From assembly GCA_004431415.1 (NCBI GenBank), contig QPMI01000453.1, forward strand, positions 598,330 through 662,329: 64,000 nucleotides of DNA, in the 5' to 3' direction. The stretch is from Cyanophora paradoxa CCMP329 (taxonomy: Eukaryota > Plantae > Glaucophyta). This document shows, one piece after another, positions 32,998-60,230 of this stretch (within the stretch, counting starts at the first letter, position 1; every line of letters begins with the position of its first letter). A model generated the notes under the pieces. It worked only from the letters and a program-made list of their open reading frames with translations, searched no databases and was not told where the DNA came from. The position numbers were made by a program, and so were the translations under genes.

Positions 32998-33092
32998 ACA
33001 CATATTGAAAAACGAATTTAAATCCCTCGTTCATCTCGATCGCTTCGCGATCTCGATTCACTCTGGATTTAAATTCGTTTTTCAATATGTGT
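32998..33092. other. Left terminal hairpin: 28-bp perfect stem around a 39-nt insert with inner stem GATCGC-ttc-GCGATC
   Basis: ACACATATTGAAAAACGAATTTAAATCC (32998-33025) is the exact reverse complement of GGATTTAAATTCGTTTTTCAATATGTGT (33065-33092). Confidence 0.9.
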
Positions 33093-33782
33093 TAATTTAA
33101 TACAAAAATACATATTTATCGATTAATTTCTTTAACTTTTTATGCAAACTTTGTATAAATTAATGCAAACTTTGTATTAAAATGATAAACGCGTTTAATT
33201 TAATGCATATTCACGATTGATTCAATCGATATTATATCGATAGATTATGTTCTTTGTCGATTACATATATAACTTCGATTGATTAACATTAAACTACTTA
33301 AAGAACGATATAATCGCGATTAATTCGCATAAATTCGCATAAATTCGCATAAACTCGATATATCTCATCGGTATTGAAGTAGACCACCGCCCATTTTGTA
33401 TCGGAAAACGCAAAAACTGTCACAGAGTTGCATTATGTCCAATTAAACAATCGATGGGATTGCGGATTTACATTTTTGCACCGAAAAAGTGTCACAGAGT
33501 TGCATTATGTCCAATTAAACAATTGAGAAGATTGCGCGATTTTCTATTGGAATATATCGGAACTGCATCATGTCCAATTAAACAATCGATGAGATTGCTG
33601 ATGAACATTTTTGCATCGAAAAACTGTCACTGAGTTGCATTATGTCCAATTAAACAATCGATGAGATTGCATATGTTCTATAAAACAGAATAATTGAGAT
33701 CAAGTGTGACAGGTAGTATTCAAATGATATTCAGTAAGAGATAGTTTTGTTTTTGAGAAAGTCAGTAAGAGGGGTGGAATGT

Positions 33783-34223
33783 CTGTGACGCCTGTGACGG
33801 CTGTGACGCCTGTTTTCAGAAGTCTGTCATTTTTGAAAATTTTAAAAAGTTTGAAAGTAGGTGTCACAGGCGTCACAGGCGTCACACTCAATTAAATTAG
33901 GTGTCACAGCGAAATTGCAGACCATTTCCAGTAAGACAACTTCGCATTTTCGGAAAGGTGGATTAATGGATAGTGTTTTGTAGGTGTCAGAGGTGTCACA
34001 AGACGGATTTCAGTAAGACAAGAATATATTTTTGAATATCTCAGTAAGAGAAAGAGATTCCATTTTTAATTGGGTGTGACGCCTGTGACGGCTGTGACGG
34101 CTGTTTTAAGAAGTCTGTCATTTTTGAAAATTTTAAAAAGTTTGAAAGTAGGCGTCACAGGCGTCACAGGCGTCACAGTCAATTAAAGAGGCGTCACAGT
34201 CAATTAAATAGGTGTCACACCCG
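33783..34223. promoter_or_regulatory. Two inverted-iteron modules in the left TIR (putative replication origins)
   Basis: Each is (TGTGACGSC)x3, a ~50-bp AT-rich spacer, then (GGYGTCACA)x3-5; located at ~33783-33909 and ~34066-34223. Function is inferred. Confidence 0.6.
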
Positions 34224-34278
34224 ATTATCTGACCATTTTCAGTAAGACCATCTGAAATTCTGAATTTCTCAGTGTCAA

Positions 34279-34680
34279 CTAACTCGGAAATCGCAATACT
34301 CTATGTTTCTCCGATTTCTCCAACCCTGAAAACACACCTGTTATTCTCTCATCTATCTCATGAGATACTCTCGTGGTTTTCCTCTCTGCTTCTAATCCAC
34401 AACTGAATATATCAATCGCCAACATACCTTCATTTGAGTAACAATGAGCAGTGCAATGGCTCTCATCCAGCAGAAGAACCATTGCAAAACCAGGAGGAGA
34501 AATACCACCATCGAAAATCTCGCAATGCTTGTGAACTACTCGAATACCTTGCTCTTGAATAATAGTTTGCAAGAACTGCATTAACCACCTGGTTGTTGTC
34601 TCCAAGTCCTCCATTCCTACTGCTAATTGGGTTCTGAATTTGTAATCCAGCATCACATGGAAGCCTCGATGAGTATTCAT
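34279..34680 (-). CDS. speD: Prokaryotic-type pyruvoyl-dependent S-adenosylmethionine decarboxylase proenzyme (AdoMetDC family)
   Basis: 133 aa; GFHVMLD...GFAMVLLLDESHCTAHCYSNEGMLAIDIFSCG retains the E-S autocleavage site, the HxxxH motif and the catalytic Cys. Confidence 0.9.
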   Translation of the reverse strand: MNTHRGFHVMLDYKFRTQLAVGMEDLETTTRWLMQFLQTIIQEQGIRVVHKHCEIFDGGISPPGFAMVLLLDESHCTAHCYSNEGMLAIDIFSCGLEAERKTTRVSHEIDERITGVFSGLEKSEKHRVLRFPS

Positions 34681-34682
34681 TT

Positions 34683-34871
34683 ATGAATAATTTAGAAAAA
34701 TTAAAAAACGCGATTGGTAGAATGCGAACCATCTTAGCAAGAGTGCTACCATATGAGTTGGTGGATATCATTCTGCTGCACTACCACAAGACCTGTCCAA
34801 ACTGCTTTGATACATGCATAATCACAAAGGGAAAATGGGGAAAGATCCTCATTTCTCTCTCAAAGATCTAA
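34683..34871 (+). CDS. Small hypothetical protein (LPYELVDIILL, CxxC)
   Basis: 62-aa ORF that exactly fills the gap between its neighbours. Confidence 0.35.
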   Translation: MNNLEKLKNAIGRMRTILARVLPYELVDIILLHYHKTCPNCFDTCIITKGKWGKILISLSKI

Positions 34872-35140
34872 TCAAAATATAATACTACTGGTTTATCATC
34901 TATCACAATTCCTGATGTAGTCTTTTTTCTGTAAGCATGAGAGGATTTCTTGTTGCACTCTCTGCATCCACTTCCCCTTACATGATTAAATGGGTAGGTT
35001 TGGAGGATCTTGTTGCATTTGAGGCATCTAACAGAGACCTTCTCTTGTGCTTTCTTATAGACTGTCTCACTGTAATCGAATTTAGCATCACCATGAACCA
35101 TCATTGCAGACTCTATGAATTTCTTTGTTTTATCATCCAT
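34868..35140 (-). CDS. Single Zn-ribbon repeat protein (DUF723-like)
   Basis: FIESAMMVHGDAKFDYSETVYKKAQEKVSVRCLKC...NHVRGSGCREC, the same repeat found in 55495-56460. Confidence 0.75.
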   Translation of the reverse strand: MDDKTKKFIESAMMVHGDAKFDYSETVYKKAQEKVSVRCLKCNKILQTYPFNHVRGSGCRECNKKSSHAYRKKTTSGIVIDDKPVVLYFD

Positions 35141-35167
35141 CCCTCTCTCTATATATACCTGAGATTT

Positions 35168-35997
35168 CTATGGAGCAGTATCCTGCCCGAAAATGGGGAA
35201 GTAGCGATTTGTGCCGTAATATTCTGCATATGTATTCTGTTTTGCAATAGCATCGGTTCTCTCAGCATAGAGAATGCATTTGTAGATACCAAATCTGGTG
35301 GCTCTCACCAAGAACTGGTAATCTTCAAGACCGAAATTCACACCATGATAAGCGATTCCGAAATTGTCATATGGAGTGATCACAACTGCAATATTTGGGG
35401 TTCCACCCTCTACTTGACAGACAGCATAAACATCTGGTGGGATATCGACAACCACCTTGTAGTGGTCACCAATCTCAACAAGAGAATCAACTACTGATGT
35501 CTGCTCATTCACAACAATTGGGAAGATCTTGATAATATATGGTGCATTCATACTGGGGACATAGGTGCGAATTCTGGTGTTGGGATCAATGGGATTGGGT
35601 TGATCATTTACGAAAAGAGGCGCACCAACAGCTCCACCAATCCGAAGACCATCACCAATATATGCTCCCCCGTTTTGCAGTTAATAGCTCCCGACCGAGA
35701 TTCAAAAGAATAAGTAGAAAGAGGATCACCATAACTGTCTGGGTCTCCATAGTGGGCAGAAAAGTTTGCATTTGTGACAAGGAGTTTCGTTGTCTTAACT
35801 ATACCATTATTTTTATCACACCTGAGTTCCTGCAATCTCAGTTTGTGGGTGGAACCAAATGTATTCATGGTAGGTTGCACTTCTGTGGATTGGAGACCTT
35901 CTACATCATCAAAGGTAGCATGCTGCAAAACGTGATTCGCAGGTGCTGCTAATGATAGTTGGGGTGTAATAATTCGTTCTGGTATTGGGGCAGCCAT
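35168..35997 (-). CDS. Putative virion accessory protein A (~276 aa once a +1 G is restored at 35667-35671); paralog of 36021-36914
   Basis: ORFs 35608-35997 and 35168-35551 join as ...KTGGAYIGDGLRIGGAVGAPLFVNDQPNPIDPNTRIRTYVPSMNAPY. The C-terminus VVDIPPD...VVITP...ILYAERTD resembles tail/fibre C-terminal domains. Confidence 0.65.
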
Positions 35998-36020
35998 TTT
36001 ACATTAAAGTGATATATAAT

Positions 36021-36914
36021 TTATGGGGTTGGGTCATCAATCACATCTGGTTCCTGGTAAAACCCTGTTGTGAAGATATCTGCAACGTTTACCCCTCGAA
36101 GTGCCGAAACAGCTGCTATATCTGTCCTCAGTCCCATAATCATAGTATTGTAAACTCCAACCTCAGTTACAAACAAATCATAGGTAAATGTCAAATTGTT
36201 ATAAACACAATATCCTCGACCGAAATGGTTTGATGCTTGAACAAAGAATAGGTAATTATGACCTGTTTGATTGTTGTTTGCTCTGCACATAGATAGCATT
36301 GCTGTGGGAAGCGGAATATTTCTTCTTACTCGATCAGTTCCTGTTATAATAACCAATTCCGAATTTTCAAGAGTGACAGAGGAAGCAACATAGAAATGTA
36401 GAAAAGGTTGCTGTGCAACTGGTGTATAGAAACGTATTCGTTGGGGATTCTCTACATTTTGTTCAAGAGTATCTGGGACATCATTATACGAAATTGAGGA
36501 TGAAAGTTGACCTGAAATTCGACAGCCACCCCCAATAAATGCTCCTCCTGATCTCACAGTAACAGCAGCAGAATTCTTATCGAAATCAAGGGCTTTCAGA
36601 TCAACACTGTAAGCATCAGGACCTCCATTAGTAGGTTGGAAGAAATTCGCATTTGAGACAAGGAGTCGAGTTGTTTTAACCACACCAGAATTCTTGTCTG
36701 CTCTCAGTTCTTTAACTCGAATAATCGAATTCTTATCAAAGGAGTTACCATTGGAATTGGGTCTCTCTGTTGATTCTAAACCACGAACCTCATCATTAAC
36801 TTCATGCTGGCGAAAGTGCATAGCAGGGGATCCAAGGGAATATATTGGAAGTTGAACTCGATTATATTCACCCATTGCTTCTTTTACTAAGAAGGAAAGA
36901 AAAATAAACACCAT
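36021..36914 (-). CDS. Putative virion accessory protein B; paralog of 35168-35997
   Basis: Shares ELRxDKNxGxVKTTxLLVxNANF and GGAxIGxGxRIxG with protein A; the C-terminal halves differ. Confidence 0.65.
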   Translation of the reverse strand: MVFIFLSFLVKEAMGEYNRVQLPIYSLGSPAMHFRQHEVNDEVRGLESTERPNSNGNSFDKNSIIRVKELRADKNSGVVKTTRLLVSNANFFQPTNGGPDAYSVDLKALDFDKNSAAVTVRSGGAFIGGGCRISGQLSSSISYNDVPDTLEQNVENPQRIRFYTPVAQQPFLHFYVASSVTLENSELVIITGTDRVRRNIPLPTAMLSMCRANNNQTGHNYLFFVQASNHFGRGYCVYNNLTFTYDLFVTEVGVYNTMIMGLRTDIAAVSALRGVNVADIFTTGFYQEPDVIDDPTP

Positions 36915-37223
36915 TCAAGCCAAAGCAATTAGATTGGATCCAAGAGATTGGTAAGCGGTTGTTAGACATTGGATGTTGGATGTCATCGCTTTGAGGTTAG
37001 AATCACATTCACCATATTTTGTTACTGGGTCACCATAAGCCGATTGCGCAAGGACATTAACCAAAAGGTTTTTATATTCATGAACAACCGGTGACAGTTT
37101 GTTGGTTTGCTGTATCGTTTTTTCGACAGTTTGTAGTGCGGCTACAAGTTTGATAGTATCGAATGCAAGAGCGACAGGCTCAGAAGAAGTAGAAGGAGTT
37201 CCACCGAGTGGATAGGTCGCCAT
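36915..37223 (-). CDS. Hypothetical helical protein (102 aa)
   Basis: ATG-start ORF abutting both neighbours in the same orientation. Confidence 0.6.
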   Translation of the reverse strand: MATYPLGGTPSTSSEPVALAFDTIKLVAALQTVEKTIQQTNKLSPVVHEYKNLLVNVLAQSAYGDPVTKYGECDSNLKAMTSNIQCLTTAYQSLGSNLIALA

Positions 37224-37226
37224 TTA

Positions 37227-40200
37227 TTATACTGTGACATTTTTAATTTGGTCTATTTGACTTTGTAAATCTTTGCATTTCTGCGATAACTCCTTCACTG
37301 CTTCAATGAGAACAGGAATTAAACCTGTGTATTCAAGAGATAGGTAGCCATCGTCTTTTTTAACATTAACTACCTCTGGTATTACCTTTTGAACATCTTG
37401 TGCAATTAAACCTAATTTTGTTCCGTCTTTTTCGCTTCCAATTCGTTTAAAACTTACTCCTTCTAATCTCTCGATTGCTGAAAGAGCGCCGGTTATCTTT
37501 TTAATATCTGTTTTGTATCTTATGTCACTTCCTTGTGTTAAATACCCTCCTATCCACATCCATCCTCCATGATACATGTAACAAATATCAGTATCTTGTT
37601 CATTTCGGAATACAAGGGGAATATCTCCCCCTCCTTTCAAATATGTAGAAGTTTGGTTACCGAAATGGATACGATTATATCCATCACTTGAACTAAACCA
37701 AGTCCCCACAGATCCTGTTAAGATATTTGGTTTACTATAAACGTTATTCCAATGAATATAGCCGGTGTGACCACCATAACTATTTCCTACCCAAATTTTC
37801 ATGTAACTAATACCCATAATATGAACTCTTCCAATCTTTGGTCTAATCCGAATAGTGAGGAATCTATTTCCAAGATGTATTGGAACATTATTTAAACCAC
37901 TGTGGTTACCATCAGGCGATGTGGCGTATGGTTGATAACTATTCACTGATGTAATAAAAACTTCATTCCCTTGTCTATTAACTCCCCAAATTTCAAAAAG
38001 TCGTGAGTTAGTCCAAGGTAAATAGGTTAAAAATGCTGTTCCTGTGTGGTATCCATCGGGTATATCGAAGTCAATCCAAGCGGTAGAAGTTTCGTCATCA
38101 GATTGATTATTATGGACATATGAACCATAATTATAATATGGATCCCATGCTGTACTCCATGCCCATGTCCAACCCTCAGAACATCTATTAAATGCAATAC
38201 CTCCTACTGTTTTATCTGCTGTGTGAAACTTTGGGACATCATTACCGTTTATTTGGAGTTTGGTAGTAGCATTAATAGTGGATGCTGTAATAGTATTATT
38301 CACCCAAAAGTTACCGTTACCATATGATTTTAAGATTGCTGCATCCGCTGAGTTTCTAAATTCAATTGACACACCGTCAGCATTCGGTCTCCCTCGTATA
38401 TATGTGCAATCGCCATTACCAAACCAAATTCGCTCGACTGCATCTACTGATTTTAACCATGTATTTGTTGGCCATGTTGCTGTTCCTGGGAGGTCTGCGG
38501 CTGAGTAAAATGATGGTTTACTAAATACGTTATCCCAAGAGATCATGCCCAATTCATTATCAGTTGCTCTCTGTCTGCTCCACCCAAAAACACCCGTTAG
38601 ATAAATGCGACCTTTTCGACCTTGAATGTATATCTTTGTGTAAAACTCACAATTGATTGAGGCAAACAAAACAGTATTATGTGTCCCATCTTGATAAACT
38701 GCCTGGATTCCCTGATAGGCATTTACTCGTTTTAAGAAATGTTGATATCCATTAGTTGTTTGCCCATAGATATCGAAATATCTGCAATTATGCCAAGGCA
38801 TGTGCTGGATGTAAAATGATTTCATACCTGTGGGGACATTCCACCTCATCCAACAGCCGCTACAATCTTCATCATTTTGTGGTGTTGTATAACATCCTGT
38901 TTGTCCTGTTCTTGCGATCCAATTCAAATTCCAGTTATTCGCGCTTCTATCTGTCGAAACCACATCTAATTGATCGAATTCATAACCTTTTGGAATTGTG
39001 GTTCCACCAATTTGTAAAGTGGTAGCATTTACAGTTCCTGTTACAGTTCCACCTGTGAGAGGTAGATAATTCGCAAGAGCTGATGTTAATTCGGTATCTG
39101 TAACAAAATCTGTAACAGCTAACTGTAATTCTGTATTTGTAACATAATCTTTGTTTTCTAAATAATCATCTGTAACAACACCGGAAAGGGTTGTATTGTG
39201 TAAGTTTTTCGCCGCCATTCTCTGATTGACTTCTAAGGCGCCACCTGATGTCGTTTTTATCCACGCCATCTCACATTTCCCATGATCATCTGTGGGTTGT
39301 CCCACAACAGGAAGGTAGTTTACAACTTTCTCCCTTGTGAACACAATTTTAGGTCTTGCTCCATCATATGCGCTTTGATCTGTAACGTTTATTTGAATAG
39401 CTGCTGAAAAATCGGCTACTTGTCCTGTTTCTCCTGGGTGATAATTCGTTACATAGATACTTGGGAAAGTATCATTAACTCCCACATTAAAATCGCCATC
39501 ATAAACTCCATTAACAATTGGATCCCTGGGTAATCTTACTGCAAGAGTTCCCACCATTGGGGTTCCTGTTTGACCTGTAAAAGTCCCATTGAGACTAACA
39601 TAATGATCATTCAAATACAATCTTTCAGGTGTATTACTTGATTGGTAAAGAGTGACTCCATTAAAAACGTTTCCGATTGCATTCAATTGTGCAAAAACTG
39701 GCTGTTGATCTATTTCGTCCCAATTGTGCCTATGTGTGAAATCTGTTATTTGCGCTTTTGTGTGAGTATGGTCAAAATCTGTAATATCTGCTTTGACATG
39801 TTTGTGTGCAAAATCTGTGATTTGCGCTTTTGTGTGAGTATGGTCAAAATCTGTAATATCTGCTTTGACATGTTTGTGTGCAAAATCTGTGATTTGCGAT
39901 TTTGTGTGAGTATGGTCAAAATCTGTTATGTCTGCTTTAACATGTTTATGGTCAAAATCTGTGATCTGATCTTTGGTGTGTGTGTGGTTTTGTATCCAAC
40001 CTTGAACCACATTTGATGTTGTATAGTTTGGAATCACAGCATTTGAAGAGACGATTAAATTTTTTATATGAACATATTCAGCCGAAATTCGTAGATTATC
40101 AGGATAGTAAAGCGGCTGAGTTATTGGAAATCCATATGTCTGTTGAATGTAATATCTCACCTGTTGTTTCTCGCCTTCTGTCAAAACTCTATTGAAAACA

Positions 40201-43154
40201 ATGAGTTCTGCAAACTCACCCCAGTCGTGTCTTGTTCCAAAAAAATTAAATGTTGATGGCGGAAGCCAGTTTCCAGCTACTGTTCCTAAATGCTTCCCGT
40301 TCATTGAATATGATATACTTTCGGAAGTCACAGTGGTGTCCCAGTATGCATGTTTATAATTTGCGTATTCTTCATAAGGCATATGGACATGTGGAAGGTC
40401 ATTATATGTTGGGGTTCCATATTGCATGTTTATTCCAGCTGCTGTGTTAATATATCTATTCATGCCCATTTGCAAACAGGGGGGCTTACTGTCCAATCTA
40501 TAAAAGTTCCATAGTTAACTTCAAACACTCCTTCATCAGCAACATAAAATACTCCATTTGTGTATGAATCAGATCTCACATTACCCACATAGAAGAATGT
40601 TAACCCATTACTCCAATCCACGGTATCTGTTCTATTTGTGGTCAAACCAACACTTCCCGAACCAGAATTTAAAGTGATTTGATTGTTCAATAAAGGACTT
40701 ATCTTAAAGTATGATGTATTGGGTGAACTTCCTGTCAAAGCATACAAATTTGGAATGAATGGAATTGCTAATGTGGATCGGTTGCCGATTGGTTTTGCGT
40801 ATGCATTTTCAAGATCGGCATAACCTGATGGTTTAGCTGCCATTACACAATTCGGAATTGTAAATGCCGGATCTGTATTTGATGTAACAGGGTAATATGG
40901 TGTGTTATAAAAGACATCGACTTTTGTATTTCTATCTCCAATAAAAATATTACTTGTCACTGTAAGATTTCCATTCACTTTTAAATTACTCGTCTCTATA
41001 TTGCTACTGTAAATATTACTATTTACCGTAAGGTCTCCTGTGATTGTCCCACCAACAAGTGGAAGATACTTAGATAATTCATCTGCAAGTTCAGGTTTTG
41101 TAACATAATCTCCAAGCATAGCAAGAGTAACGAAATTAACGAGAATTACAGCCGTTAGGTAATCTTCTGTTACCACTCTCGAAATAGTCTCATTGTGAAT
41201 ATTCTTTGCAGCCATCCTCTGATTGGCTTCCAGAACCCCACCATAGTTTGTTTTAATCCATGCAAGCTCTGCCCTTCCATAGTTATCATTTGCAGTTCCC
41301 ACTATGGGAATATAGGAATATTTATCTCGACTGAAAACTATCATTGGTCTTGATCCATCTAGACTGCTTACATCTGCTACATGAACCTGTATAGCAGAGT
41401 TGTAATTTTGGTAGGTTGCTGGGTCTGTTGGGACTCTGAATGTATCTGTGGGAATGTCAGCCTCCATGTAGCTTGACACAAAGATATTTGGTATGGTTGC
41501 TCCTGGTTCTGGTGGTGGATTATAAGAGCCTGGTAATGTCCTAATATGAAGTGGTCCTCTCATAGCTGAATTCGCAAGTGTCCCATTCACATGAACATAG
41601 TGGTGATTCAAAAAGATCCTTTCAGGGACATTGCAAGTCTGGTAAAGAGAAACTCCCAGAGTAGCAAGAGGCTCAACTTTTGCAAATTCTGGTTGGTCAT
41701 TGATCTCATCCCAGGTGTGTTCATGGTTGCTTGCTGCAAACTTATCTGGAATCCCATCAATATCACCCCAATCATGCCTGTGGTCTTCTGGTGGGTATTT
41801 CTGTGGTTTGCCTAAGATCTCATCCCAGTCATGATTGTGATCCTCTGGGGGATACTTTGCAGGTTTATTATTAATTTGTTCATAATCAGGAAAGAACTCC
41901 CAGATCTCAGGTCGAAATCCATCTGGTAATAATTCTTCATGGGGTTCATATGGTTGCTCATAATCAACAACTGGTGGTTCGAGACCATCTGCTAAATATT
42001 CCTCATGGGGTTCATAATTCTGCTCATACTCATACTCTTGTGGATCTAAACCATCTGGTAAATACTCTTCCTCATTGGGATCATATTGATCATATTCATA
42101 CTCTTGTGGGTCGAAACCATCAGGTAGGTATTCCTCCTCATCTGGAACGAATTGGTATTCGTCAAGCTCCAAAATATCAATTTCAGGAGGTAAATATTGC
42201 TCATCAATTTGCTTTCTTGGTTCAATTATCGGTTTATTTCGAACCTGCTCCCAACTCACAATGTGTTGACCAAAAGGAACTGTCTCATCTGCTGTGTATT
42301 CTCTTCCTGGTTGCTTTTTGGGTGTTAAATCTGGTGGATCCCATGGTAGTGGGAAGGGAACTGGGACAGGTCCATAATACTCAAAGATCTCTCTTATGGT
42401 CTTCTCACTTACAAGTTTCTCTCCATTTGCATAGACATTGCTTCCATGGATATTTCGCCATTGTCTGGTTCTAATACCAAGATCTTTGGTGTTTGTCACC
42501 AAAGGTAAAAGGTGCCTATCCATTTCGACAAGGTCTGGGTGTAAATGAACTGTTACTGGTTGAGTGGGGCTACTGTTGACAGTGATAGACGCCTTATTCT
42601 TTGCTGTATCACCAGGTAGTTGGAAACCGAATTGCGCATTAGAAGCCGAATTCGCCACAATATCTCGTGGATAAACATTGTTAGTGAACTCGATTTTGTT
42701 GGTTTCTCCATGGGGGCTATCTGTAATATTTCGGGAATTTGTGCAATTGCATTTGATCCTTCATTATAGATTCTCAAACCACTCTGATGCCACCCTTCTC
42801 ATTTTGAACATTGAATATTAACCTACCACTATCGAATCGAGTTGGAATATCTGGATGGGTTCCACTGGTTTTCAGTTTTCTTGGTCTGCTCCTGGTTGCT
42901 TTAATCTGGGCTACTTGATTCGATTTCACATTCCCCATGCTGAAAGCAACACTCACATCCTCCTTTTCGGGATCCATTTCGTTTATTGAAAGTGCATGCT
43001 CTCTTGGGTGAGTCTTTGAGGGTTCATCTGCACTGTGATCAATTGAGATTGACCCTCTGGCTGTCAAGTTATCGAAATTCACATGTTTGTTATCTGCCTT
43101 CCCTCTTCCTGATGAGGGAATGGTTTGAAGGTTTGCTGGGTAATTGAAACTCAT
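37227..43154 (-). CDS. Giant fibre/spike protein (~1970 aa across three frameshifts) with HxH tail-fibre repeats and a C-terminal peptidase S74 chaperone domain
   Basis: ORFs 42774-43154, 42553-42777, 40460-42658 and 37227-40496 overlap end to end. Contains HTHTKAQITDF repeats and ends SDIRYKTDIKKITGALSAIERLEGVSF...GLIAQDVQKVIPEVV...YTGLIPVLIEAVKEL. Confidence 0.8.
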
Positions 43155-43203
43155 CCCTGTTTACTCTACTTATAGAGATTTATTAAATTTGAGTTAAGTA
43201 AAG

Positions 43204-44744
43204 ATGCCCCTTCGTGTAATTCTCTCATTATCAGGTGGGGAGCTCGTGGTATAATTATTACGAGATTGTTAAAAGAAATCGAAACTCGAACAGGAAAAAG
43301 AGTAATTGACCTTGTTGATCTGGTGAGTGGAACATCCACTGGTGGGATAATTGCGATTGGTCTCAATGTGAAAAATCCCGAATTTCCAAACGAACCTAAA
43401 CTTACTGCAACCGATTTGCATTCCACTTATCTCAATCAACTCCCCTTAATCTTTGCAAATCCCAGAAATATTATTGATAATGCACTTTTCAACACCAAGT
43501 ATGATGTGACCCCATTGGAGACAGCCATTCTCACTGTTACTGGTGAGTCTCTCATTCAAGACTCTCTCAAAGATGTAGTGATCACAAGTTTTGACACTGT
43601 GAGTATGAAGCCCATTTTTATCACCAATGATAACTCCTACAAATCCATCCCCAGCAAGATTGCTGCAAGATCCACCTCTGCTGCTCCAACATATTTCTCA
43701 CCTGTGAACTATGATGGGATGTCTCTAATTGATGGTGCAATCTCAGGTAACAACAATCCCAGTGTCTGTGGTTACAGTCATGCTAAGAAGATCTATGATG
43801 ATGATGATGATATTATAGTGATAAGTATATCCTGTGGTGAAGTCAATGAAACAGATGCTCCAAATGTGGGTTACTCTTATGAAGATGTGAACAGCTGGGG
43901 CATCCTCTCTTGGATTGCTTCGACCTCTGGAAGTCCATTAATCAATATGTTGATGGCTGCAAGTGAACTGTCTGCTCTGGAAAAGATGCAAGAGTTTCTC
44001 CCATACAATGATGATCAAGGATATGCAAGATATTATAGACTCTCTGTTCCACTTCCAAAGACCATAGTAAACTCTTTGGATGATACCTCTAAAATACCAG
44101 ATATGATAGATGCAACCGAAATATATATAGCAGCAAACACTGTGATGATTGATAGACTCTGTGATTTACTGGTTGCAAATTACGAAATCAAGAACCCTGC
44201 AAGGTTCTATATATCATCCACTCTGAATAACATACCTCCCATTGATGCTAACTGGTATCTTCTATCAGATGGTGCATTCACTGCTTCATCATCAAAAATT
44301 GGAAGGGAGGCATTTAAAGCAAGACCTTCCTTGACAGGTTGGGAAGCAAATGCATCTGCTCCTGATGGGATATGGAGTGTTCCCACTGAGTATCTCCAAG
44401 TAACCTTCCCATACATATTTGAGGTTGCATCTATAATTGCATATGGTTCTGGTGTAACAAACGCTTTTATTAAGACCTTCAATGTTGCAACATCACAAGA
44501 TGGTGTTTCCTGGTCATTTATCAAGTATGAAGGTGTCAACAGAGTGTTTATGTGTGAAACTATTAATAATGCCCACAACAGTGGTGATGTCTCATACAGT
44601 TCTGGGTATCCCACCTCTATTAGAGACGTTTTCTATATTGGCTACCCTCTGAGGACAAGGTATATTCGAATTTATCCACTTGTATACATCAACACCCCAA
44701 CTATGAGAGTGGATGTCACAGGTGCATTTATTCGAAGTGTATGA
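43204..44744 (+). CDS. Patatin-like phospholipase fused to a C-terminal F5/8 type C (discoidin) domain
   Basis: Restoring one G near 43237-43240 gives MPLRVILSLSGGGARGII. Also GTSTG, ARSTSAAPTYF and LIDGA, then EYLQVTF...FIKTFNVATSQDGVSW...RTRYIRIYP...MRVDVTG. Confidence 0.88.
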
Positions 44745-44965
44745 TACATCAGGACTTCTGATGTATGATACAGTGGCTTCTGTATCTTCACCCACATTAT
44801 GGCGATTTTTACAGTAGCTACTGTATTTTATTACCAGGTGCTCCGTTTTTAAATCTGAAAACAGATTCGGAATCGCCACGATAGCGCCAATCAGGATTCG
44901 TCGTGATCGGGCACTTACAAAATAAAAAATTGACAAGGAGTTTCTGGATTCTCCCAACTTCTGCT

Positions 44966-45208
44966 ATGGATCCCATCTACCAAGACCCTGCTATCATCCA
45001 TGCTGCCCAGTCAGACTGGATCCATGATTTCAAGACTGCTTTCTATTACAATTTCTTCATGTCACAGCCAGAGCATGTGAGACTGTTCTTTGTTTATAAT
45101 TACCAACTGGTCTCAAACCTTGAAACTTTCTTCTTGGAAATTATTGAAAAAGATAGACAAATGAGGAAAATTCGCCAGAGGTCTAAGAGATTCCGAAAGC
45201 GTTGTTAA
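44966..45208 (+). CDS. Hypothetical protein (80 aa)
   Basis: MDPIYQDPAII...KRFRKRC, convergent with the integrase. Confidence 0.45.
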   Translation: MDPIYQDPAIIHAAQSDWIHDFKTAFYYNFFMSQPEHVRLFFVYNYQLVSNLETFFLEIIEKDRQMRKIRQRSKRFRKRC

Positions 45209-45209
45209 T

Positions 45210-46625
45210 CTATTTCCTCTGCCCTCTTCGTAGATTGAATCGAGTTTGGGGTGCAGTATATGTTTCTTTGGTGGTTGAAAAGTCATTATACCACCTCTGA
45301 CTGTTGACTTCTGATAATTTCTGGGTTCCTGCTATGGTCAACTTCTTTAATTCTTTCTCTACTCTACCCTTCTTTTGTGCTCTTGCTTCTGTGAGGGTTC
45401 TTTTGGTATTTCACTTGCTTTTTCTATGCCCTCCTTTCTGATTGCTGAATCAACCCTGGCTTCCTCCTTTGCCTGTTCAAGAGCATCCACTGTGGGAGTT
45501 TCATGATACTCAACACCTTTAATGGGCAGCAGTTCATGAAAAGCGAATCTACCATCAACTATCTCACCACTGGGACTTCTGATTCTGAACTTGAAGCCCT
45601 CTCTGCCCTCCACACTATAAACAATTCGAGACCAATTAACCCCTTGCTTTGCAAATGGATTCTTTTCAACTTTCACTCTCACAAACATTCCAGGTTTCAG
45701 GGCATCAAGATACTCAATCGATTTCTTGAATCTCTGATCCTCCATATTCACTATCTCTTTGTAGTGGGCTTCTGTGGTCTCTGCTGGTTTTCTCTTGGTT
45801 GCAGAGTGAATGGTATTATTATAATTATACTCAATATCACCCAACACATCAAAAAATCGTGCAGTATTATTTGCAATGCAGTAGTTTGTGATCAATCTCT
45901 TGATCTGTCTGTTAAAGGCTTCAATTCGACCTTGGGTTCTGTGATCTGCAACATCACTTAGTTGATGCTCAATGAATTTTGTTCCCAAATAATCTGTGAA
46001 CAACACATTGGTAAATTCGCTTCCACTGTCACTCTGAATGCGAACAATTGGTCTGGGGACTCTCTGTTCAAGTTGCTTGAATGCTGCAAGTGTAGTAAGA
46101 GCACTCTTGTCTCTCATTGGAATTATGAACCCTGTTCTCAGGGTTGACTCCATTGCACTCATAAATGTATCATAACCATCATTCTGCTTTTTGTATGCAG
46201 GAAAGAAGAGCAGATCAATCACATAGGTATCAAGGGGTTGCCTTATTGGAATCATGGGATCTCTCTTTCGAGATAGGGTGGGTGCATTAATCTGGACGAC
46301 CTCCTGCTTATCATACCACTCTCTCATCTTCTTGTAGTTCTCCTCTGGTAGTTCCTGTCTCATTGCAGTAATCCCTTGTAGCCTGTCCTGGGATCATAGA
46401 ACTTCTTAGCAATCTTCGACTCTTTTGGTGCTGTCTCAGCTGGGAGGGTCTCTGGATTAATTGCTTGACCATCTCTGATCTTTTCAATATTCGACTGCTC
46501 TTCTCCTCCACTGGAACTGTGATGGGCAGGATATTCCCTCGATCTTCAATTGCCTCTTTTCTTACAATTCTGGGTGGTTGTCTCAATCCTATTTGTGTAG
46601 AAGGCATCTTTACCTTATCTCTCAT
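45210..46625 (-). CDS. Retroviral-like (rve) DDE integrase of Polinton type, frameshifted near both ends
   Basis: Core ORF 45359-46363: YVIDLLF...RIQSDSGSEF...QGRIEAFNRQIK...YNNTIHSATKRKP. An upstream frame adds KFYDPRTGYKG. Confidence 0.92.
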
Positions 46626-46790
46626 ATAATAAATGCAAGAGTCTGTGTGGAAGGAGAACACAATTCCAAACTACTTTGCAATTGAGCCCAATGATCCAGG
46701 ATTAAGATGTATATGGCTGCTGCATTTAATTCGCGGTTTATTACTTCTTGGAGAGCGAAACCAAAGAAAAAGAAAGATTGATGAAGTAGA

Positions 46791-49700
46791 TTAGAGCCCA
46801 AATGGAATGCTGTGAATTCCATCGTCTAATATCTTCCTTTTGCTATCGAGTTGGTTTAGAGCCACCCTTCTGCTCTCCAAATCATATAGGTTGTGGTCTT
46901 GCCTTCGCTTGTTTACTACTGCTACTGTTTTGGTGATGCCTTCAAACAGGCATCTCTTGAAATCATCAAAGTGAACCTCTTTGGAGGAAGTCCCAGACAT
47001 CTTTATTTTATCAAAGGTCTCAGTTCTGAAAGCATAGAGTTTCGATCTCAGACCTACATACTCCACAATCTTTGCATTTGGAAACTCGTTTTTATATTTA
47101 CCTGGAATCAAACGATTGCTCCTATCAAAGAGAGGGTGGGTGGGATCATAATTACTGCAATCCAGGTGTCCAGCAATTCGCTTCATCTCATTATTTAGAT
47201 CATTGGTATGCAGCAGGAGACAGAAAGAATCTGTATCATGGAATAGTAGCTCTGCTGTTTCCCAAGTTCTCCTCACCACATCATAAAAGAACCTGCTATT
47301 GTGGAGTTTCGCGAAATCCAGCACAAAAGCACCAATTGCAACAGGTTTATCTAAGTGAACATGCTTGGAATACATCTCAAAGGCAACAGCATTTTCGTTT
47401 AATACATTGGTTGCCTTGATGAGTGGACTTGCAGCATATTTCTTGCAAAGTTTCTCACTGTTTGCAATCTTTACCACAGAGCGACCCCTGCATGATTCGA
47501 GGCATTTACCATAGATTGCATTGTTCATTAATTTAAAGAAGTCACTCTCGAATCTGGACATAGATTGGCGCCTCAGTTTCGTATTTAGATCAATATAACT
47601 CTTCATGAATGCAGAGGTTGCAAATGAGAGAACCCTGTGAACCTTCGTGATTATAATACCTTTGCTCACAAGATAGATCAAGAGAGGTTGGGAAATCACA
47701 TAGTTATTTTGGGTGAGAATGTTGCAGTGAGTTTGGGGTCTTTGCTTATCTTCTCACCTGTGATATCCAGTAACTTTCTTTGATACCCACCCAGCATTTC
47801 GGTGGTGACATGTCTTTATTAACTACAAGTGGAAAATCGTAATGATCTGTGAGAGTTTGTGGGTATTCCAGGTCAACTTCAATAAAGGCACTTCGTCCTT
47901 GGGTCTCTTTAAGTGCCTCTGAGACATCTTCCCATCGAAAATCTCCAATGGGCAGTTCTTGACTGAGAGCAAAACCATACAGATTATTTGCATCCAAGAG
48001 AACTATATGGTCATCTGGGTTTTCCACCTTTGCATATCGAGTAGGCATTGTAGCAAACCCACCTCGAATTGCTCTCTCAATGAATTCGTATTGCCCTACA
48101 TCACTGATCTGCTCGATCTTTGCTCTGGTATAAATGAGCATTGCATCCCAGGATAATCCAGGAGCCGAAACATAGTGGGCAGGATCCAATCCATATTGGG
48201 AAAACGCCAATTCTCGGAAAGTCTGGAATTTACTCATAAGATCACCAGAATCCACTGCCTGGAAGTCCATGAAGTGCGAAGCATCTATGAATTTCCACAT
48301 GCCCCATTGCAGGGAGAGGTATTGATCGAAATTCTTGCTCAGGATCTCAACACGAAGTTTATCATCTTGCTGTGCAATTTTGCGGAATATTTCGTGTCCA
48401 CATTCATCCATGTGATCCACCACAATTGCTACTTTCGTTTGCTTTGAGATTCTCCTGTGGAGGTTGCAGTTTCGACATGCTTTTCCAATAAAGCTCCTGA
48501 TTGATGACAATGGTCTCTACTGGGAAATTCTCATGGGTAAATCGTTCAGCACAGATATAACAGTGTTTAGTGATCTTGTATTGTGCTTTCTGCTCTTCTG
48601 TGAGTGGGTGCATTGGAATATTGGTGAATAGAGTGCGGATTACTTGGGGTCTGATCTCTGTGAGAGTGGTAAACAGAGCACCAAGTGGATCTGATCCCTC
48701 GAAATAATGAGAGATCACCTCATCCCCCATCACAACTGTTAGAGAAACCGATTTTACCTCTCTCTTGCTGCGGTTCTCATCAATTGGAACCGAGTGACTA
48801 TCCATTTTCACATAGCAGATAGTGGGAAGCCACACAGTTTTGCGAAGATGTTGAAGCCCAAATGCAATGTGACTTCCAGATTTGGGCATTTACCTTTGCT
48901 CTCCCTCCAATCAATGCAGCGATTGCTTCTAATGAATCCAGCTTCTCCTGAGTTCTGAAACGAGACAGGCAGGTCTCACATAATAAATGCGACCATCATG
49001 GGCTTTATCAAAGGTGGTTTTCAGAGTCGACTCAGAGACATATGGTGATATAATGCCTCTATCATCCTCTTCGTTTTCGATTAATAAAAGGTTAATCTTG
49101 GTCTTTCTCCTCGGGTTGCTGGATTGTGAGAGGATAGAAGCACTGTGCTTGATTATCTGCACCATAAATGTTGATTGAGTTCAGGGTTCTGCTCCTCAAA
49201 TCGATCAATGATTCTGCATCACAGGCAACTGGAAACTGGATGCCTTCGAAATTGAGTTCGTTTAACCATCTTCTATACTGGCTGGGTTCATTGCTCTTGT
49301 GTTTATTAATGTCTTTCGGTGCAGGTAAGCCAAGATTGCATACTTGAAGCAGTCTTGACCATCAATATTCTTGACATTCACAGTTGCTCTCTTTATCCAA
49401 TCCACTCAGGTGTTGAGAAGAAGCAACCACCCACAGGAGCATAAGACATTATACCACTCTCAGCATCTCATGCGATCCAGTCTGTAACTGTCACCTGCAT
49501 CATCTGTTCCTGCATTGCTTGAAGTGCATTTCGCAGTTCAACATCAATATTTCGTGATCTTGTGATGACAAAGTAATCACTATAAATGAATTGGTGATCC
49601 ACACCCTTGGATCACTCACTTTGGTGAATTACAAATGAAGGTCAACCGAGTCTTAATTGCTCTCAGGTCTTGGAGTTTCTGTCTGAGTCTCTGGGTAGAG

Positions 49701-50038
49701 TAGTGCAATTCTCTCCAAGAATTCAATCCCATCTTGGATAACCTCCCCTCTTGCTCGATAGGTAACCAAGAGTATGCTTTGTTCATTGCTTCCCCATCTT
49801 CAATCTCGGTTCAATTGTCCCAACCTTAAACCTTCATCCCTGAATTCCTCCATTTCTCAAAACGATCATAAGCGATTGTAATTTCTGTGAGTTGAGATAA
49901 TCTTGGTCTCCTATCCAGGATTGCTGCCTGGCGATCATATTCGAATTCTGTAATATCACCAGTAACTAAAAGGGTTCCTAAAAGACCGAGTATTTCGTTT
50001 TTCTTTTCTTTGATGATTCTATTTGATTGGCGGGGCAT
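46791..50038 (-). CDS. Protein-primed family B DNA polymerase (Maverick/Polinton type), split by multiple frameshifts; N-terminal limit uncertain
   Basis: RATVNVKNIDGQDCFKY, HCYICAERF...CRNCNL (endo VII-like Zn finger), YGLDPAHYVSAPGLSWDAML, AIRGG, LLDANNLYG, FFKLMNNAIYGK, FHDTDSF and GLRSKLYA. Confidence 0.92.
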
Positions 50039-50093
50039 CTTTTACTTTAAGGGAACATATTATTTTGGGCGTTTTAAACGCATTTCGCATTTT

Positions 50094-50285
50094 TCAGGTT
50101 CTGATAATTCGCACATTCGTGCCTTTGGGGACATATACATTCACTGTGTCGAGTCTGCTTGCATAAACACGCTTCTTTTGATAGGTTCTACCATAACCTG
50201 CTCTGATCTTTGCAATATAATCCGCCACCTCTGCAATATCATTCTTTTCGACAAGCTGCTGCCGAATTTCATCAAAATAATCCAT
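50094..50285 (-). CDS. Hypothetical protein (63 aa)
   Basis: ATG ORF between the internal iteron module and pPolB. Confidence 0.45.
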   Translation of the reverse strand: MDYFDEIRQQLVEKNDIAEVADYIAKIRAGYGRTYQKKRVYASRLDTVNVYVPKGTNVRIIRT

Positions 50286-50425
50286 TTTCTGTCTTAGTCA
50301 AGTGAAATACGCAACGATCCCTTAAATCGCCAGTCAATTTTTGTCACAACACAACGATTTTCGATACGTTTTTATATTGTCCGATTAGAATCGAACAGTC
50401 ATCGACCCACAGGGGGAGTCTGTGG

Positions 50426-50585
50426 TTAATTGGGTGTGACGCCTGTGACGCCTGTGACACCTGTTTTCAGAGGTTTGTAGATTTTTGAAATTTTAAAAAG
50501 TTTGAAAATAGGCGTCACAGGCGTCACAGGCGTCACACTCAATTAAAAAGGTGTCACAGCTGTCACACAAACCATTTACAGTAAG
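50426..50585. promoter_or_regulatory. Internal inverted-iteron module (putative origin), a diverged copy of the TIR module
   Basis: TTAATTGGG(TGTGACGCC)2TGTGACACC, AT-rich spacer, (GGCGTCACA)3CTCAATTAAAAAGGTGTCACAGCTGTCACAC. It lies just past the helicase stop codon. Confidence 0.7.
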
Positions 50586-50604
50586 TTTTTAAAAAATAAG
50601 AAAT

Positions 50605-52996
50605 TCAATCAGTATTAGAATCGATTCTGTTTTGTTTACTCATCCCACCTTCAACATCACTGTCATCCACCAACTTGCGACTATGCTTCTTTTTGATCCC
50701 AAAGTAGCCACGAGCAAGAACACCATTGACTCGCTTTCTCTCAGCCTTCACATTAAAGACTTCGCGAAGTCTCTTCAAGATAGTGCATTCTGTGATTTTC
50801 TCATCAGATTTGCCCATGTGATCATCTTAAAGTGACTGATAATGGACTCACTTGTGGCGAAATCCCCTTGACTCTTGGTGAGTTCATAACTCTCACGAAT
50901 CCATTCTCCAATCTTGTCATTCTCATTGAAATATTCAACACCTTGATCAACAATGGACTGGGGTGGTTTGGTGACGAATTCATTGAGAGAATGGGTTCTC
51001 CACATTTCCAGGAGAATGGACATATGCGCCATTTTATAATCGTCATCATTCTTCATTAGGCGCATGAGAGTGGTGTCTGCTTTCTTCTCACCAGGCTGAG
51101 GATCGACCTTGAAGACATTTTCGAATCGGTAGTAGATAATTCGCCTTTGAATTGCTGCATCTGGTTTACTGATTCCCAAGTTGTCATTTGTGGACAAGAA
51201 CAACTGGAACATGGGAATGAATGTAACAAGATCTTTGAAAAGAGCTCGAACCTTCATCTCATTCCCACCAGTAACCTGTTTGATTTTGTTCAGTTGAAGC
51301 ATATCACCATCTTCTGCTTCATTACTGAAAACAATTCGTTTACCAAGAATGCAAGCGAGTTCTGGGGAAGCCTCTGACGAACTCTTCTTGGGTTTAGTCC
51401 AATATGTCATGTCCAGTGACCCATAATACTCACCAAATGTGTCTTTCACCAACTCTTGGAGCAGTGATTTCCCATTTGCTCCAATTCCAGTCCAGCAAGT
51501 GTATCTCTGATTTTCTGTCAAACCACTCAGGGCATAGGCGATTAATCCCAGCATGAATTCGCGGTCTGTATCCGATTCAATAATATCTGCATAGATGGAT
51601 TTAATCTTTGCAACCTTCTCTTGGTCAATTTCTGTGGTGTAATCGTAGCCAACAGTCTTACTCACCATATCATCTGGGAGTCCCTGTCGAAAAGTCATGG
51701 AGTTCAGGTCAAACACACCATTTGTAAATCCAATGATGTTGGGAACAGTATCAAGTCTCTCGAAAAAGGTCTTGTCACTGAACAGAACTGAAAGATCAGA
51801 CATAAGTGCAGTTCTGTATGTAGTCTGTTTGAGGCTCTTAGCAATTCCCAGCAGAATCTTTGACCTTTCCTCCAAGGAATTGCGGTTCTCTTCATCACGA
51901 AGTGCTCTCTGTGCGAGTTGAACAGAACGTTGAAGATAAACTGGACAGACCTTGCAGCTCAAACAGAGAAAGATTCGCTTCCCAGTTTCATCCATCTCCC
52001 AAATCCCACATACATCATTGAACTTGAACCAGGTCTTGTTGGAATACTTGTATTTGTCTTGCAGAACAAGATAGGCAACCTGTGCAACATCATAATGGGC
52101 ACCATCAGATCCAGCAGACCGATCAATCAGATTTTCGATCTTCACATCTGTCTCTTCCTTCACACGAACTGTGATGCTTCGCTTTTTGCAGTTTGCACTG
52201 TAACTCGAAACAATATATTTGTCCTTCTCCTTCCCTTGAACAATATACCAATTGTTCGAGTCATGGCTTCCCTTGCAGCAGGGACAGATCAGACCTTTGT
52301 TCTCAGCAGTGAAATTGTATCCCATCTTGGTCTCATTGATGATTGTGGGCAAGATGAAACCGAATTCTTCCAGTTTAGAAAGAATATGTTTCTGCAAATT
52401 CTCCTCAGCGCACCTCTCAAAATAAGAATGTGCACCTTTGGGAATTCGTAGTTGTCAACAATCCACTTTTGCAACTCAGCAGTAGGTTCATTTAACTCAC
52501 ACTCAGATGCCCATGGCTCTCTGATCCATGTTTTGTTGGGACTTGGACAAACATTAATTACCCCAGCAGTCCCAGTGGATGCAATCGTTTTGCAGTCGAT
52601 CTTGGGGTTTCCTTTGAATGCACCTGCTTTATCCCAGATCTTAATGGTGTCGAATTCAGCAGGTCGAGCGAAATAAGCATGATATCCTTTTTTGGTTTTA
52701 GCAAGTGGATTAACACCACCGAAATCATCAGGGAATTGCTCCTCGAATTTGGCGAAATCCTCCTCTTGGTCGAAGTCAATAACCATGATATTACGAGCAA
52801 GAATGCCCCAAGCAGTATATTTACCGGATTTCAGGGCTTCATCGAATTTATCCCAAGTCCAGGATCCGTCTTTATGAGCGAAAAGCGGTCTCTTGGTATC
52901 AGGATCAACAGGAATTACGAGATTCTCAGACAGGACATCGTCTTCACGAAGCCAGTCAACAAGGCGTTTCAGGGATTTCTTGGCGGCAGCGTTCAT
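50605..52996 (-). CDS. Bifunctional primase-polymerase (Prim-Pol/AEP) fused to a D5/P4-like SF3 helicase, with two frameshifts
   Basis: N-terminal WGILARNIMVIDFD...KTKKGYHAYF; Zn finger CPCC..HDSN; IGFTNGVFDL; Walker A GIGANGKS; Walker B IVFSNE; FLSTND; C-terminal RVNGVLARGYFGIK in ORF 50605-50817. Confidence 0.9.
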
Positions 52997-53189
52997 TTCG
53001 AAAATCGGGGCTTCTTACACTTAATGGAGAAATTAATTTCTCCGGATCCTTGTCATTTTTTGGCGGCTAACCTTTAAATACCTTTGGGTTTTCCGATTGG
53101 CGCTCGATACATGGTAATGATCCATCGAAAAGTCGATTGATCATGGTAACAAAAAGGATTCAGCGGATATCTGGGACTTTGGGGGCGGT

Positions 53190-53417
53190 TCAGTATTTTC
53201 TGGGACGACCAACTGGGCGTTTTACTGGATTATTGGGATCCATCTCAGCAGCTTTCCTGCGATAATATCGTTCCAGTGCCTTTTTACGATATAATTTACG
53301 AAATTCCTCATCTTGATAACGTTTCTGGAAATACAAGCGGTCATACAACCTTTTCCTCTCATTGGGATCCATTTCGCTCATTGCAAGTTCGAATTCGACC
53401 ACAGATTCAGTTTCCAT
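53190..53417 (-). CDS. Small basic protein with C-terminal AT-hook
   Basis: ALERYYRRKAAE...KRPVGRPRKY. Confidence 0.65.
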   Translation of the reverse strand: METESVVEFELAMSEMDPNERKRLYDRLYFQKRYQDEEFRKLYRKKALERYYRRKAAEMDPNNPVKRPVGRPRKY

Positions 53418-53618
53418 TTGATATGTTCCTTATATTTGGACGAGAAAATAATTTGTCCGGGTTCACCAATCAAACACACCTTACCCTTAAATCCCTTGTC
53501 ATTTTTTGCAGATCGAGACCAGTTCCTGTCTACGCTTTTTTATTGCGTCTTCTGTTGCATATTCAGCGGATTTCCTTTCAAGGATAGCATAGATCTCAGA
53601 GAGACTGAGCATTCGATA

Positions 53619-53852
53619 TTAATTACCGAGATTTAATTTCGGATCTGTGAAAGATACAGACCTTCGCCTCACTGTCTCTGTTTTAATATGCTCTTCGAAA
53701 TCCACCGAGTCTGTGGATAATCTCCTTCCACCAGATCCATGGCTTTCAGTGTCTGAGAACTCGATTTCGACTTTGGTGTCACAGCAACCACTGTGACAAT
53801 TGCTCACAATGTGGAGATTAAACATCTCAATGATTTTGCGCAGAAAATCCAT
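53619..53852 (-). CDS. Hypothetical protein (77 aa)
   Basis: ATG ORF in the co-oriented gene run; HIVSNCHSGCC. Confidence 0.5.
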   Translation of the reverse strand: MDFLRKIIEMFNLHIVSNCHSGCCDTKVEIEFSDTESHGSGGRRLSTDSVDFEEHIKTETVRRRSVSFTDPKLNLGN

Positions 53853-53879
53853 GATGCTTTCTCTTTTAATGCGAGATAA

Positions 53880-54614
53880 TTAAAGCCAAACTCGTCGTTT
53901 ATATACTGTTGGTGCAACACCTTTGTCCACCTCTGCCTTGGTAGCACCAGGTTCAATGGTGCCCTTTTGGGTTTTGGTCTTCATCTCATCAACTGCCTGC
54001 TCATCGATTTGAGTTTCTTTCTTACCAATGAACTGCTTATCTGGGAGACCAGTAATTCCCATTCTATACACCTCCTTTCGCAGCATCTCCTTTAATTTCG
54101 CTCTCTCTTTCTTCTCAGAGACATACTGTTCAAGTGCACTCGATTTCGCTTCCAGATCTTTTAGTTTCGCAGTCATTTCGTCCCATTGGGCTTTGGGAAT
54201 TCGGTGAATATTCTGTGTAGGTGCGACCTTGTAGGTGACCTCACCAGCCATGGATTGAATTACCTTGTCTGATTCCTTGGAGACACCTTCACCTTTGCGA
54301 GCAAGTGAGAGATCTTGCAGACCCAGTCCTTTATCATCAGCAGCACCAATAATTCGACGAGCACCTTCACCAACTGCTTTCATCTTTGTGGCTTCGGGTG
54401 AAATATTCAATTGATCACTGGTGGATGTTTGAGGCGCTTTATCATCGGGAGATTCTTCGTAAGCAGCATTGAGGGGATCTTCCTGTTGCTGTGATGCTTT
54501 CACTTCATTGACACCATTGAATTTCATGGGATCTGTGTTAATAGAACCGGTTCCAGAGGATGCAGAATATGACATAGCACCGGCAGGAACACCAACTTTG
54601 CGTTTGGAAGGCAT
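53880..54614 (-). CDS. Hypothetical charged protein (244 aa), possibly a core protein
   Basis: Intact ORF next to the packaging ATPase, containing a coiled-coil segment. Confidence 0.6.
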   Translation of the reverse strand: MPSKRKVGVPAGAMSYSASSGTGSINTDPMKFNGVNEVKASQQQEDPLNAAYEESPDDKAPQTSTSDQLNISPEATKMKAVGEGARRIIGAADDKGLGLQDLSLARKGEGVSKESDKVIQSMAGEVTYKVAPTQNIHRIPKAQWDEMTAKLKDLEAKSSALEQYVSEKKERAKLKEMLRKEVYRMGITGLPDKQFIGKKETQIDEQAVDEMKTKTQKGTIEPGATKAEVDKGVAPTVYKRRVWL

Positions 54615-54642
54615 TGTATATTTATTAGAAGCAGAGATTATT

Positions 54643-55425: not shown

Positions 55426-55494
55426 GGCTTTGTAGATCTTTCTTATTAAAGATAGATAAAAATAACGAACTGTTACTGATAATGGTTTTACAGA

Positions 55495-56460: not shown

Positions 56461-56542
56461 ACACCTTTTCTTTAAGTAGAAATCAAGGATGAAAAATGAA
56501 TCAAATTTTGCAGACTTAGGTAACAAAAACATACATTTGTGA

Positions 56543-57913: not shown

Positions 57914-57967
57914 GATTATCTCTTTTATTATACTGCAACATAAAAAATTCACCAATGATCCTTGATT

Positions 57968-58976: not shown

Positions 58977-59003
58977 CTTCTTTATCTATAAACATATATT
59001 AAA

Positions 59004-60219: not shown

Positions 60220-60230
60220 TTTTTGGCGAA

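Follow-up and report, generated by a model that had tools for sequence, protein, structure and literature searches.

How Polinton-like viruses (PLVs) cross the membranes of their hosts is an open question. One gene that bears on it lies in a 64,000-nucleotide stretch of the Cyanophora paradoxa CCMP329 genome (hereafter the window), where an endogenous PLV carries, head-to-head with a fibre gene, a gene for a patatin phospholipase joined to a C-terminal F5/8 type C (discoidin) domain. An earlier note, made from the letters alone, had read the protein as a membrane-targeted entry or egress enzyme co-regulated with the fibre. Both the fusion and the entry hypothesis are already known. Discoidin domains fused to patatin in rhizarian/glaucophyte PLVs, with a proposed role in entry or endosomal escape, are reported in the accessible portion of PMC12220804 (2025), the sole relevant title in a literature search for patatin, discoidin and virus; the novelty that the note implied therefore fails. 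The fusions described there share with ours the two domains, the virus group and likely the host lineage, and neither 'patatin' nor 'discoidin' appears in the text of its two supplements. The small additions made here are the head-to-head fibre link, likely intact frames and a phage-like patatin; the fibre link, the domain order and the phage-like patatin go unmentioned in the accessible portion of that paper, as does the host whose elements bear the fusion. Since architecture and hypothesis are in print, the value of the locus is that of a test case: it supplies a likely intact, multi-copy and assayable candidate with its own targeting domain, from an alga that is likely culturable.

The element and its gene content

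The fusion gene sits in an AT-rich island with an inverted repeat of about 1.4 kb at either end, and the surrounding eukaryotic sequence is GC-rich. An A32 ATPase, a fragmented protein-primed polymerase (pPolB), a Prim-Pol/D5 gene, a weak rve match, an S-adenosylmethionine (AdoMet) decarboxylase and an S74 fibre together identify the element as a PLV. Its size and repeats fall within what is expected of PLVs (14-40 kb with terminal inverted repeats), as do its core genes (A32 packaging ATPase, pPolB or primase-helicase, and integrase, the last by the weak match only). Its main features, apart from the lipase and fibre genes, are as follows.

32998..61822, no strand: endogenous PLV, 28.8 kb, GC about 0.40 versus host GC of about 0.55-0.80
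32998..34374, no strand: left terminal inverted repeat, with an imperfect palindrome of about 94 nt at its tip
34279..34680, minus strand: S-adenosylmethionine decarboxylase, its 3' end inside the terminal repeat
45359..46363, minus strand: rve integrase, weak (E 0.0011, below the Pfam cut-off)
46791..48889, minus strand: protein-primed DNA polymerase B, in pieces, upstream end provisional (DNA_pol_B_2, E 4.5e-6, at 47746-48510)
50775..52996, minus strand: Prim-Pol plus D5-like helicase, two pieces with a break near 52439
54643..55425, minus strand: A32 packaging ATPase (Pox_A32, E 3.5e-11)
56543..57913, minus strand: likely major capsid protein, 456 aa
60231..61822, no strand: right terminal inverted repeat, its tip bearing the complementary palindrome

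For the double jelly-roll major capsid protein expected of a PLV there is one candidate, which lacks a family match and is likely that protein given its size and position; its single match among 7,997 candidates is a Cyanophora paradoxa protein (P0121, 60% identity). The gene content agrees with the glaucophyte row of Table S6 in PMC12220804, which for 156 elements counts 89 lipases, 66 AdoMet decarboxylases, 85 rve integrases, 37 S74 domains, and no protease or SLATT. AdoMet decarboxylase is thus common among glaucophyte PLVs in that table; here its 3' end recurs in the right terminal repeat.

The palindromes at the tips (32998-33092 and 61728-61822) are imperfect and could fold into DNA hairpins of -32 and -30 kcal/mol. 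Such ends are unusual alongside a protein-primed polymerase and may serve as end structures in replication or excision. The 5-6 bp target-site duplication sometimes present in PLVs is absent, since the flanks at 32997 and 61823 differ. At the right end (61823) the element splits the reading frame of a likely host membrane protein, whose continuation was not found at the left flank, where GC-rich tandem repeats of about 199 bp lie. The mismatched flanks possibly reflect recombination between copies or a mis-join. Scans of host open reading frames yielded little.

Several other genes and repeats were seen. A zinc-finger/endonuclease-like gene next to the capsid gene (55488-56565; weak DUF4379 and DUF5889 matches) is missing from most copies, the joined form reaching a depth of 724-849 versus 46-54 with the gene, and looks like a mobile insertion. 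Downstream of the fibre, two tandem paralogues of no known family (35168-35997 and 36021-36914; 44% and 25% identity by piece) are possibly virion proteins. The 9-bp GGCGTCACA repeat array, otherwise confined to the terminal repeats, has an internal copy just 3' of the helicase gene (50426-50559), a possible candidate for an origin or binding site.

The fusion protein and its fibre neighbour

The lipase and fibre genes diverge from a short spacer.

37227..43154, minus strand: fibre gene, 1,976 aa across three breaks (near 42789, 42711 and 40464)
43155..43203, no strand: head-to-head spacer, 49 bp, 73% AT, each ATG being preceded by TCTA on its own strand
43204..44744, plus strand: patatin-F5/8C fusion gene, 513 aa when read across one break near 43236
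43204..44190, plus strand: patatin domain, with the Gly loop at about 43234-43250, GTSTG at 43329-43343 and DGA at 43731-43739
44259..44726, plus strand: F5/8 type C (discoidin) domain, in which the hydrophobic spikes of factor VIII C2 are not retained

Read as it stands in the window, the ATG at 43204 does not share the frame of the ORF; a placeholder at the break restores the 513-aa frame. The ORF at 43266-44744 matches both Pfam Patatin (PF01734; E 1.3e-15, 58.6 bits against a cut-off of 27.7) and F5_F8_type_C, so that the two domains lie in one ORF. The patatin motifs are complete, as the earlier note had claimed: G.GARG spans the break at residues 11-16 of the repaired protein (GGGARG in the note), and the Gly-rich oxyanion loop, the GxSxG serine and the DG aspartate align to those of potato patatin. 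A sequence search of the PDB returned potato patatin (E 1.3e-14) and CapV (E 6.4e-10). The structure model of residues 1-310 has a pLDDT mostly of 75-97, one loop excepted, and its best Foldseek match is the patatin 4pkb (E 1.5e-15). By profile, motifs and predicted fold, all the tests run, the N-terminal part belongs to the patatin family. The protein has no signal peptide and no clear transmembrane helix (the best 19-residue hydropathy, 1.5, falls in a catalytic strand); the missing signal peptide fits cytosolic synthesis and packaging, not secretion.

The C-terminal part is by sequence a member of the F5/8C family, in line with the note. It narrowly passes the PF00754 profile (E 7.3e-7, 29.8 bits against 28.2) and matches factor VIII C2 in the PDB at E 1.5e-7, or 5.6e-9 when only the C-terminal part is used. 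Matches are to factor VIII, lactadherin and neuropilin, with none to carbohydrate-binding modules, and the ten best Atlas family matches agree on an F5/8-type domain (score 0.85) and include galactose-binding domains, which we take only as a lead. A single-sequence model of the domain (pLDDT 28) was discarded as meaningless; in the full model, likewise built without an alignment, the pLDDT of this part was below 50. Factor VIII and lactadherin C2 are the best sequence matches among solved structures, but the discoidin domain differs from them by an insertion of about 14 residues and by lacking both the flanking cysteine pair and the spikes. In factor VIII C2 the spikes are Met2199/Phe2200 and Leu2251/Leu2252 (PMC13676316); the aligned positions here are gaps or small or polar residues. 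The note had named phospholipids or glycans as ligands of such domains; phospholipid binding of the factor VIII kind is not supported, since the spikes are missing, and the alignment places the domain outside the lipid-spike subgroup.

The fibre gene opens as a single 1,976-aa ORF from the ATG at 43154 only if the reading is carried across all three breaks. It ends in a C-terminal Peptidase_S74 chaperone, and its downstream pieces match phage tail fibres. The protein contains an internal duplication (41% identity across 291 aa). Contigs are far deeper over 41000-42600 than over 40300-40947, which suggests that the copies have a common shaft and variable distal parts.

The opposite-strand start codons are indeed 49 bp apart (43204 and 43154), and the spacer is likely a bidirectional promoter. 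TCTA, which we take to be a motif linked to giant-virus late promoters, precedes 7 of 15 start codons in the element (shuffle mean 3.3, p=0.025), a pattern noticed post hoc. It recurs in a second head-to-head pair, 57968-58976 (minus) and 59004-59826 (plus), interrupted at homopolymer runs; these are presumably two minor capsid genes, a label given from motif resemblance. The 27-bp spacer of that pair and the lipase/fibre spacer both carry TCTATAA. The mimivirus early motif is AAAATTGA, and it is not present in the 49-bp spacer; a literature search joining TCTA with mavirus found no paper. Gene gaps across the element are 0-56 bp, so that closeness alone tells little. Of the proposed co-regulation with the fibre, what stands is a weak indication from the shared AT-rich spacer and the TCTA on both sides; the short distance does not add to it. 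Run X20, which bears another organism label and whose RNA type was guessed, covers part of the lipase gene at a depth of about 2 and is evidence neither way, and the same holds for X21 and X24, which were compared over 45000-61900.

Relatives of the lipase and its possible role at entry or exit

The patatin is distant from all relatives found (24-36% identity). An F5/8 domain is absent from the precomputed annotation of the 120 patatin homologues listed of 140 matches, the C-terminal region had no match at E<=1 among 258 candidates of 270-861 aa, and single-protein scans found no relatives in viral or metagenome contigs. In the best 80 of 168 viral patatin loci there was no match to the discoidin domain or to seven other genes of the element. 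These searches are insensitive, and their negatives do not establish that the fusion is rare; the architecture search that the note had called for thus returned no fused relative, while the fusion itself is published (PMC12220804).

In a FastTree phylogeny of 106 sequences, including 75 of the 120 homologue matches and 30 of the 80 viral loci, the query falls on a long branch (1.27) among patatins from phage contigs, with L001 as sister (support 0.87). The closest viral relatives are the patatins of phage WO and other phages (phrog_25573), at 27-33% identity and often beside tail or lysis genes; these stand alone, with a discoidin match in none of the 80 loci, whereas ours is fused. One phage contig (L011, 756-6729) encodes an F5/8C domain in a tail fibre, then a tail chaperone, a GH108 endolysin and a patatin, so that both domains occur unfused in one module; its F5/8C domain has no match to that of the query. 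Patatins are also mentioned in other viruses (PMC12085832; 10.1101/2024.03.25.586562).

Lipases paired with a phage-like fibre in small non-enveloped dsDNA viruses have counterparts in PgVV-14T (Gezel-14T), other PLVs and Polintons. Those lipases are α/β hydrolases or parvovirus-like PLA2, whereas this one is a patatin, and within this comparison a discoidin domain is described only here. The PgVV-14T particle contains its α/β-hydrolase lipase together with a fibre (10.1101/2022.07.28.501842), PLV lipases have been repeatedly acquired and proposed as packaged entry factors (PMC4642659), and a phospholipase has been labelled a capsid-associated gene (10.64898/2026.06.19.733378).

The best explanation, which we hold tentatively and which may well be right, is that an intact patatin-discoidin lipase is made with the fibre, packaged, and breaches a host membrane at entry. 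The enzyme would be expressed late, together with the fibre, and become part of the virion; its putative patatin activity would open the host plasma or endosome membrane, and the discoidin domain may hold it at the membrane or at a surface glycan. By analogy, it would work like the known PLV virion lipases. We count in favour of this reading the catalytic motifs and patatin fold, a gene maintained in many copies (see below) and the missing signal peptide, with PgVV-14T and the proposal in PMC4642659 as precedent. The 89 lipases and absence of SLATT among the 156 glaucophyte elements are counted likewise; in cryptophyte PLVs, according to the accessible portion of PMC12220804, abundant SLATT, a putative pore-former, goes with an absence of lipases. 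Against it, the lipase lies on the strand opposite to the fibre block, in an element where gaps of 0-56 bp are usual; the setting of the nearest phage patatins points to exit, the factor VIII spikes are missing, prediction did not confirm the discoidin fold, and part of the X8 depth lacks the extra base at the lipase break (see below). If it is true, PLVs use a third lipase fold, unrelated to the α/β hydrolase and PLA2, to get through membranes.

The lipase could instead serve exit: it would be produced late, stay unpackaged and weaken host membranes from within the cytosol to free the progeny, its discoidin domain targeting the inner leaflet. We regard this as possible, if clearly less probable. 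The lack of a signal peptide suits it, and so does the setting of the nearest viral patatins: in four of the five tree-nearest loci (L005, L011, L007 and L017) the patatin is preceded by tail-fibre, tail or endolysin/amidase genes, and six of the seven GenBank phage records matched are Wolbachia WO, whose patatin has been proposed as part of a lytic cassette (PMC9203015). However, a tail or lysis gene occurs within three upstream genes in only 7 of 36 patatin clusters (80 loci; E<=1e-15; one cluster has no upstream sequence), the query's long branch joins it to L001, where a terminase gene precedes the patatin, and the PLV lipase for which there is proteomics, that of PgVV-14T, is in particles. 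Of the note's two options, entry is thus the likelier and matches the published view of PLV lipases (PMC4642659; 10.1101/2022.07.28.501842), while the phage relatives carry signs of exit.

Frame breaks, copies and the remaining readings

Packaged entry supposes an intact enzyme, and the window breaks its frame. The one-base repair proposed by the note is borne out by short-read contigs, which have an extra base at 43236 in all three DNA-type runs (the whole depth in X1 and X2; 1041 of 1554 in X8). The fibre breaks behave in the same way: contigs add one base at 42789 and at 42711 in 3/3 DNA-type runs, and at 40464 in both runs that cover it. All four breaks are located in homopolymer runs. Across the element, 14 of the 15 one-base insertions listed (the element-wide variant table has 54 further rows) fall in runs of at least two bases, and in those the window carries the shorter form. 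A 1,042-nt low-depth contig over the copy-specific endonuclease gene differs from the window by no substitution and one gap, in both X4 and X8. The extra bases in homopolymer runs and the pattern of this contig point to homopolymer deletions in the assembly; the lipase and fibre breaks are likely assembly errors, and the lipase gene is likely intact in the organism. Because the contigs mix many copies, the intactness of this one copy is not strictly proven, and with a third of the X8 depth at 43236 lacking the extra base, a genuine break in it is possible. What looks like decay of such elements in a long-read assembly can thus be homopolymer error.

Contigs run unbroken across the patatin-discoidin junction (X2, 44049-44368, depth 1579; X8, 44049-44536, depth 1046), and an X2 contig spans the spacer and both start codons (42970-43250, depth 1381). 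The X8 lipase contig is about 23 times as deep as the copy-specific stretch (46), which suggests some tens of copies, contig depth being a rough guide and not a true copy number. Among the 15 best-supported variants listed in the lipase ORF (241 further rows are in the table), 13 are synonymous, versus 23-28% expected (p 3e-7 to 3e-6), and the gene therefore looks maintained across many copies.

It is accordingly unlikely that this copy is decayed cargo, a functionless pseudogene within a dead element. Decay would account for the window's breaks in lipase, fibre, polymerase, helicase and other genes, for the mismatched flanks without a target-site duplication and for the part of the X8 depth without the extra base, but the placement of the insertions and the 1,042-nt contig fit assembly error, and the lipase variation is mostly synonymous. 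For a virophage with a poor yield two explanations have been offered, one of them a frameshifted lipase (PMC10945749).

Remodelling of host lipids is a further reading, and quite an unlikely one: a cytosolic acyl hydrolase, with a galactose-type binding domain, would act on plastid galactolipids or other membranes and free fatty acids or shut the host down. Plant patatin gives the strongest match by structure and by profile, galactolipids are substrates of plant patatin-like enzymes (PMC6162203), the phosphatidylserine spikes are missing and the Atlas look-alikes include galactose-binding domains. Yet the discoidin domain matches factor VIII, lactadherin and neuropilin, not carbohydrate-binding modules, the lipase has no targeting signal, and the fusion may occur in rhizarian PLVs too (PMC12220804). 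Similarly improbable is a more elaborate version, in which a eukaryotic virus took up a patatin from a phage lysis cassette and the discoidin domain redirected it to galactolipids or galactosylated surfaces, giving a fibre-co-regulated galactolipase that opens algal, possibly plastid, membranes, and not a parvovirus-style endosomal phospholipase.

Least probable of all is a suicide effector in the host's defence, where a CapV-like lipase would kill the cell once a giant virus triggers the integrated element: endogenous virophages do protect hosts (PMC10945749), the lipase shares the patatin fold and catalytic motifs of CBASS CapV (E 6.4e-10, above), and 3 of the 11 top homologues tested (P0001, P0007 and P0061) pass the CBASS lipase cut-off (NF041079), but the query itself, short of 21 N-terminal residues, scores 104.7 bits against 200, no Pfam match to a cyclase or cyclic-nucleotide synthase lies among the 23 element ORFs scanned, the discoidin domain is extra to CapV, and plant patatin outranks CapV as a match by both structure and profile.
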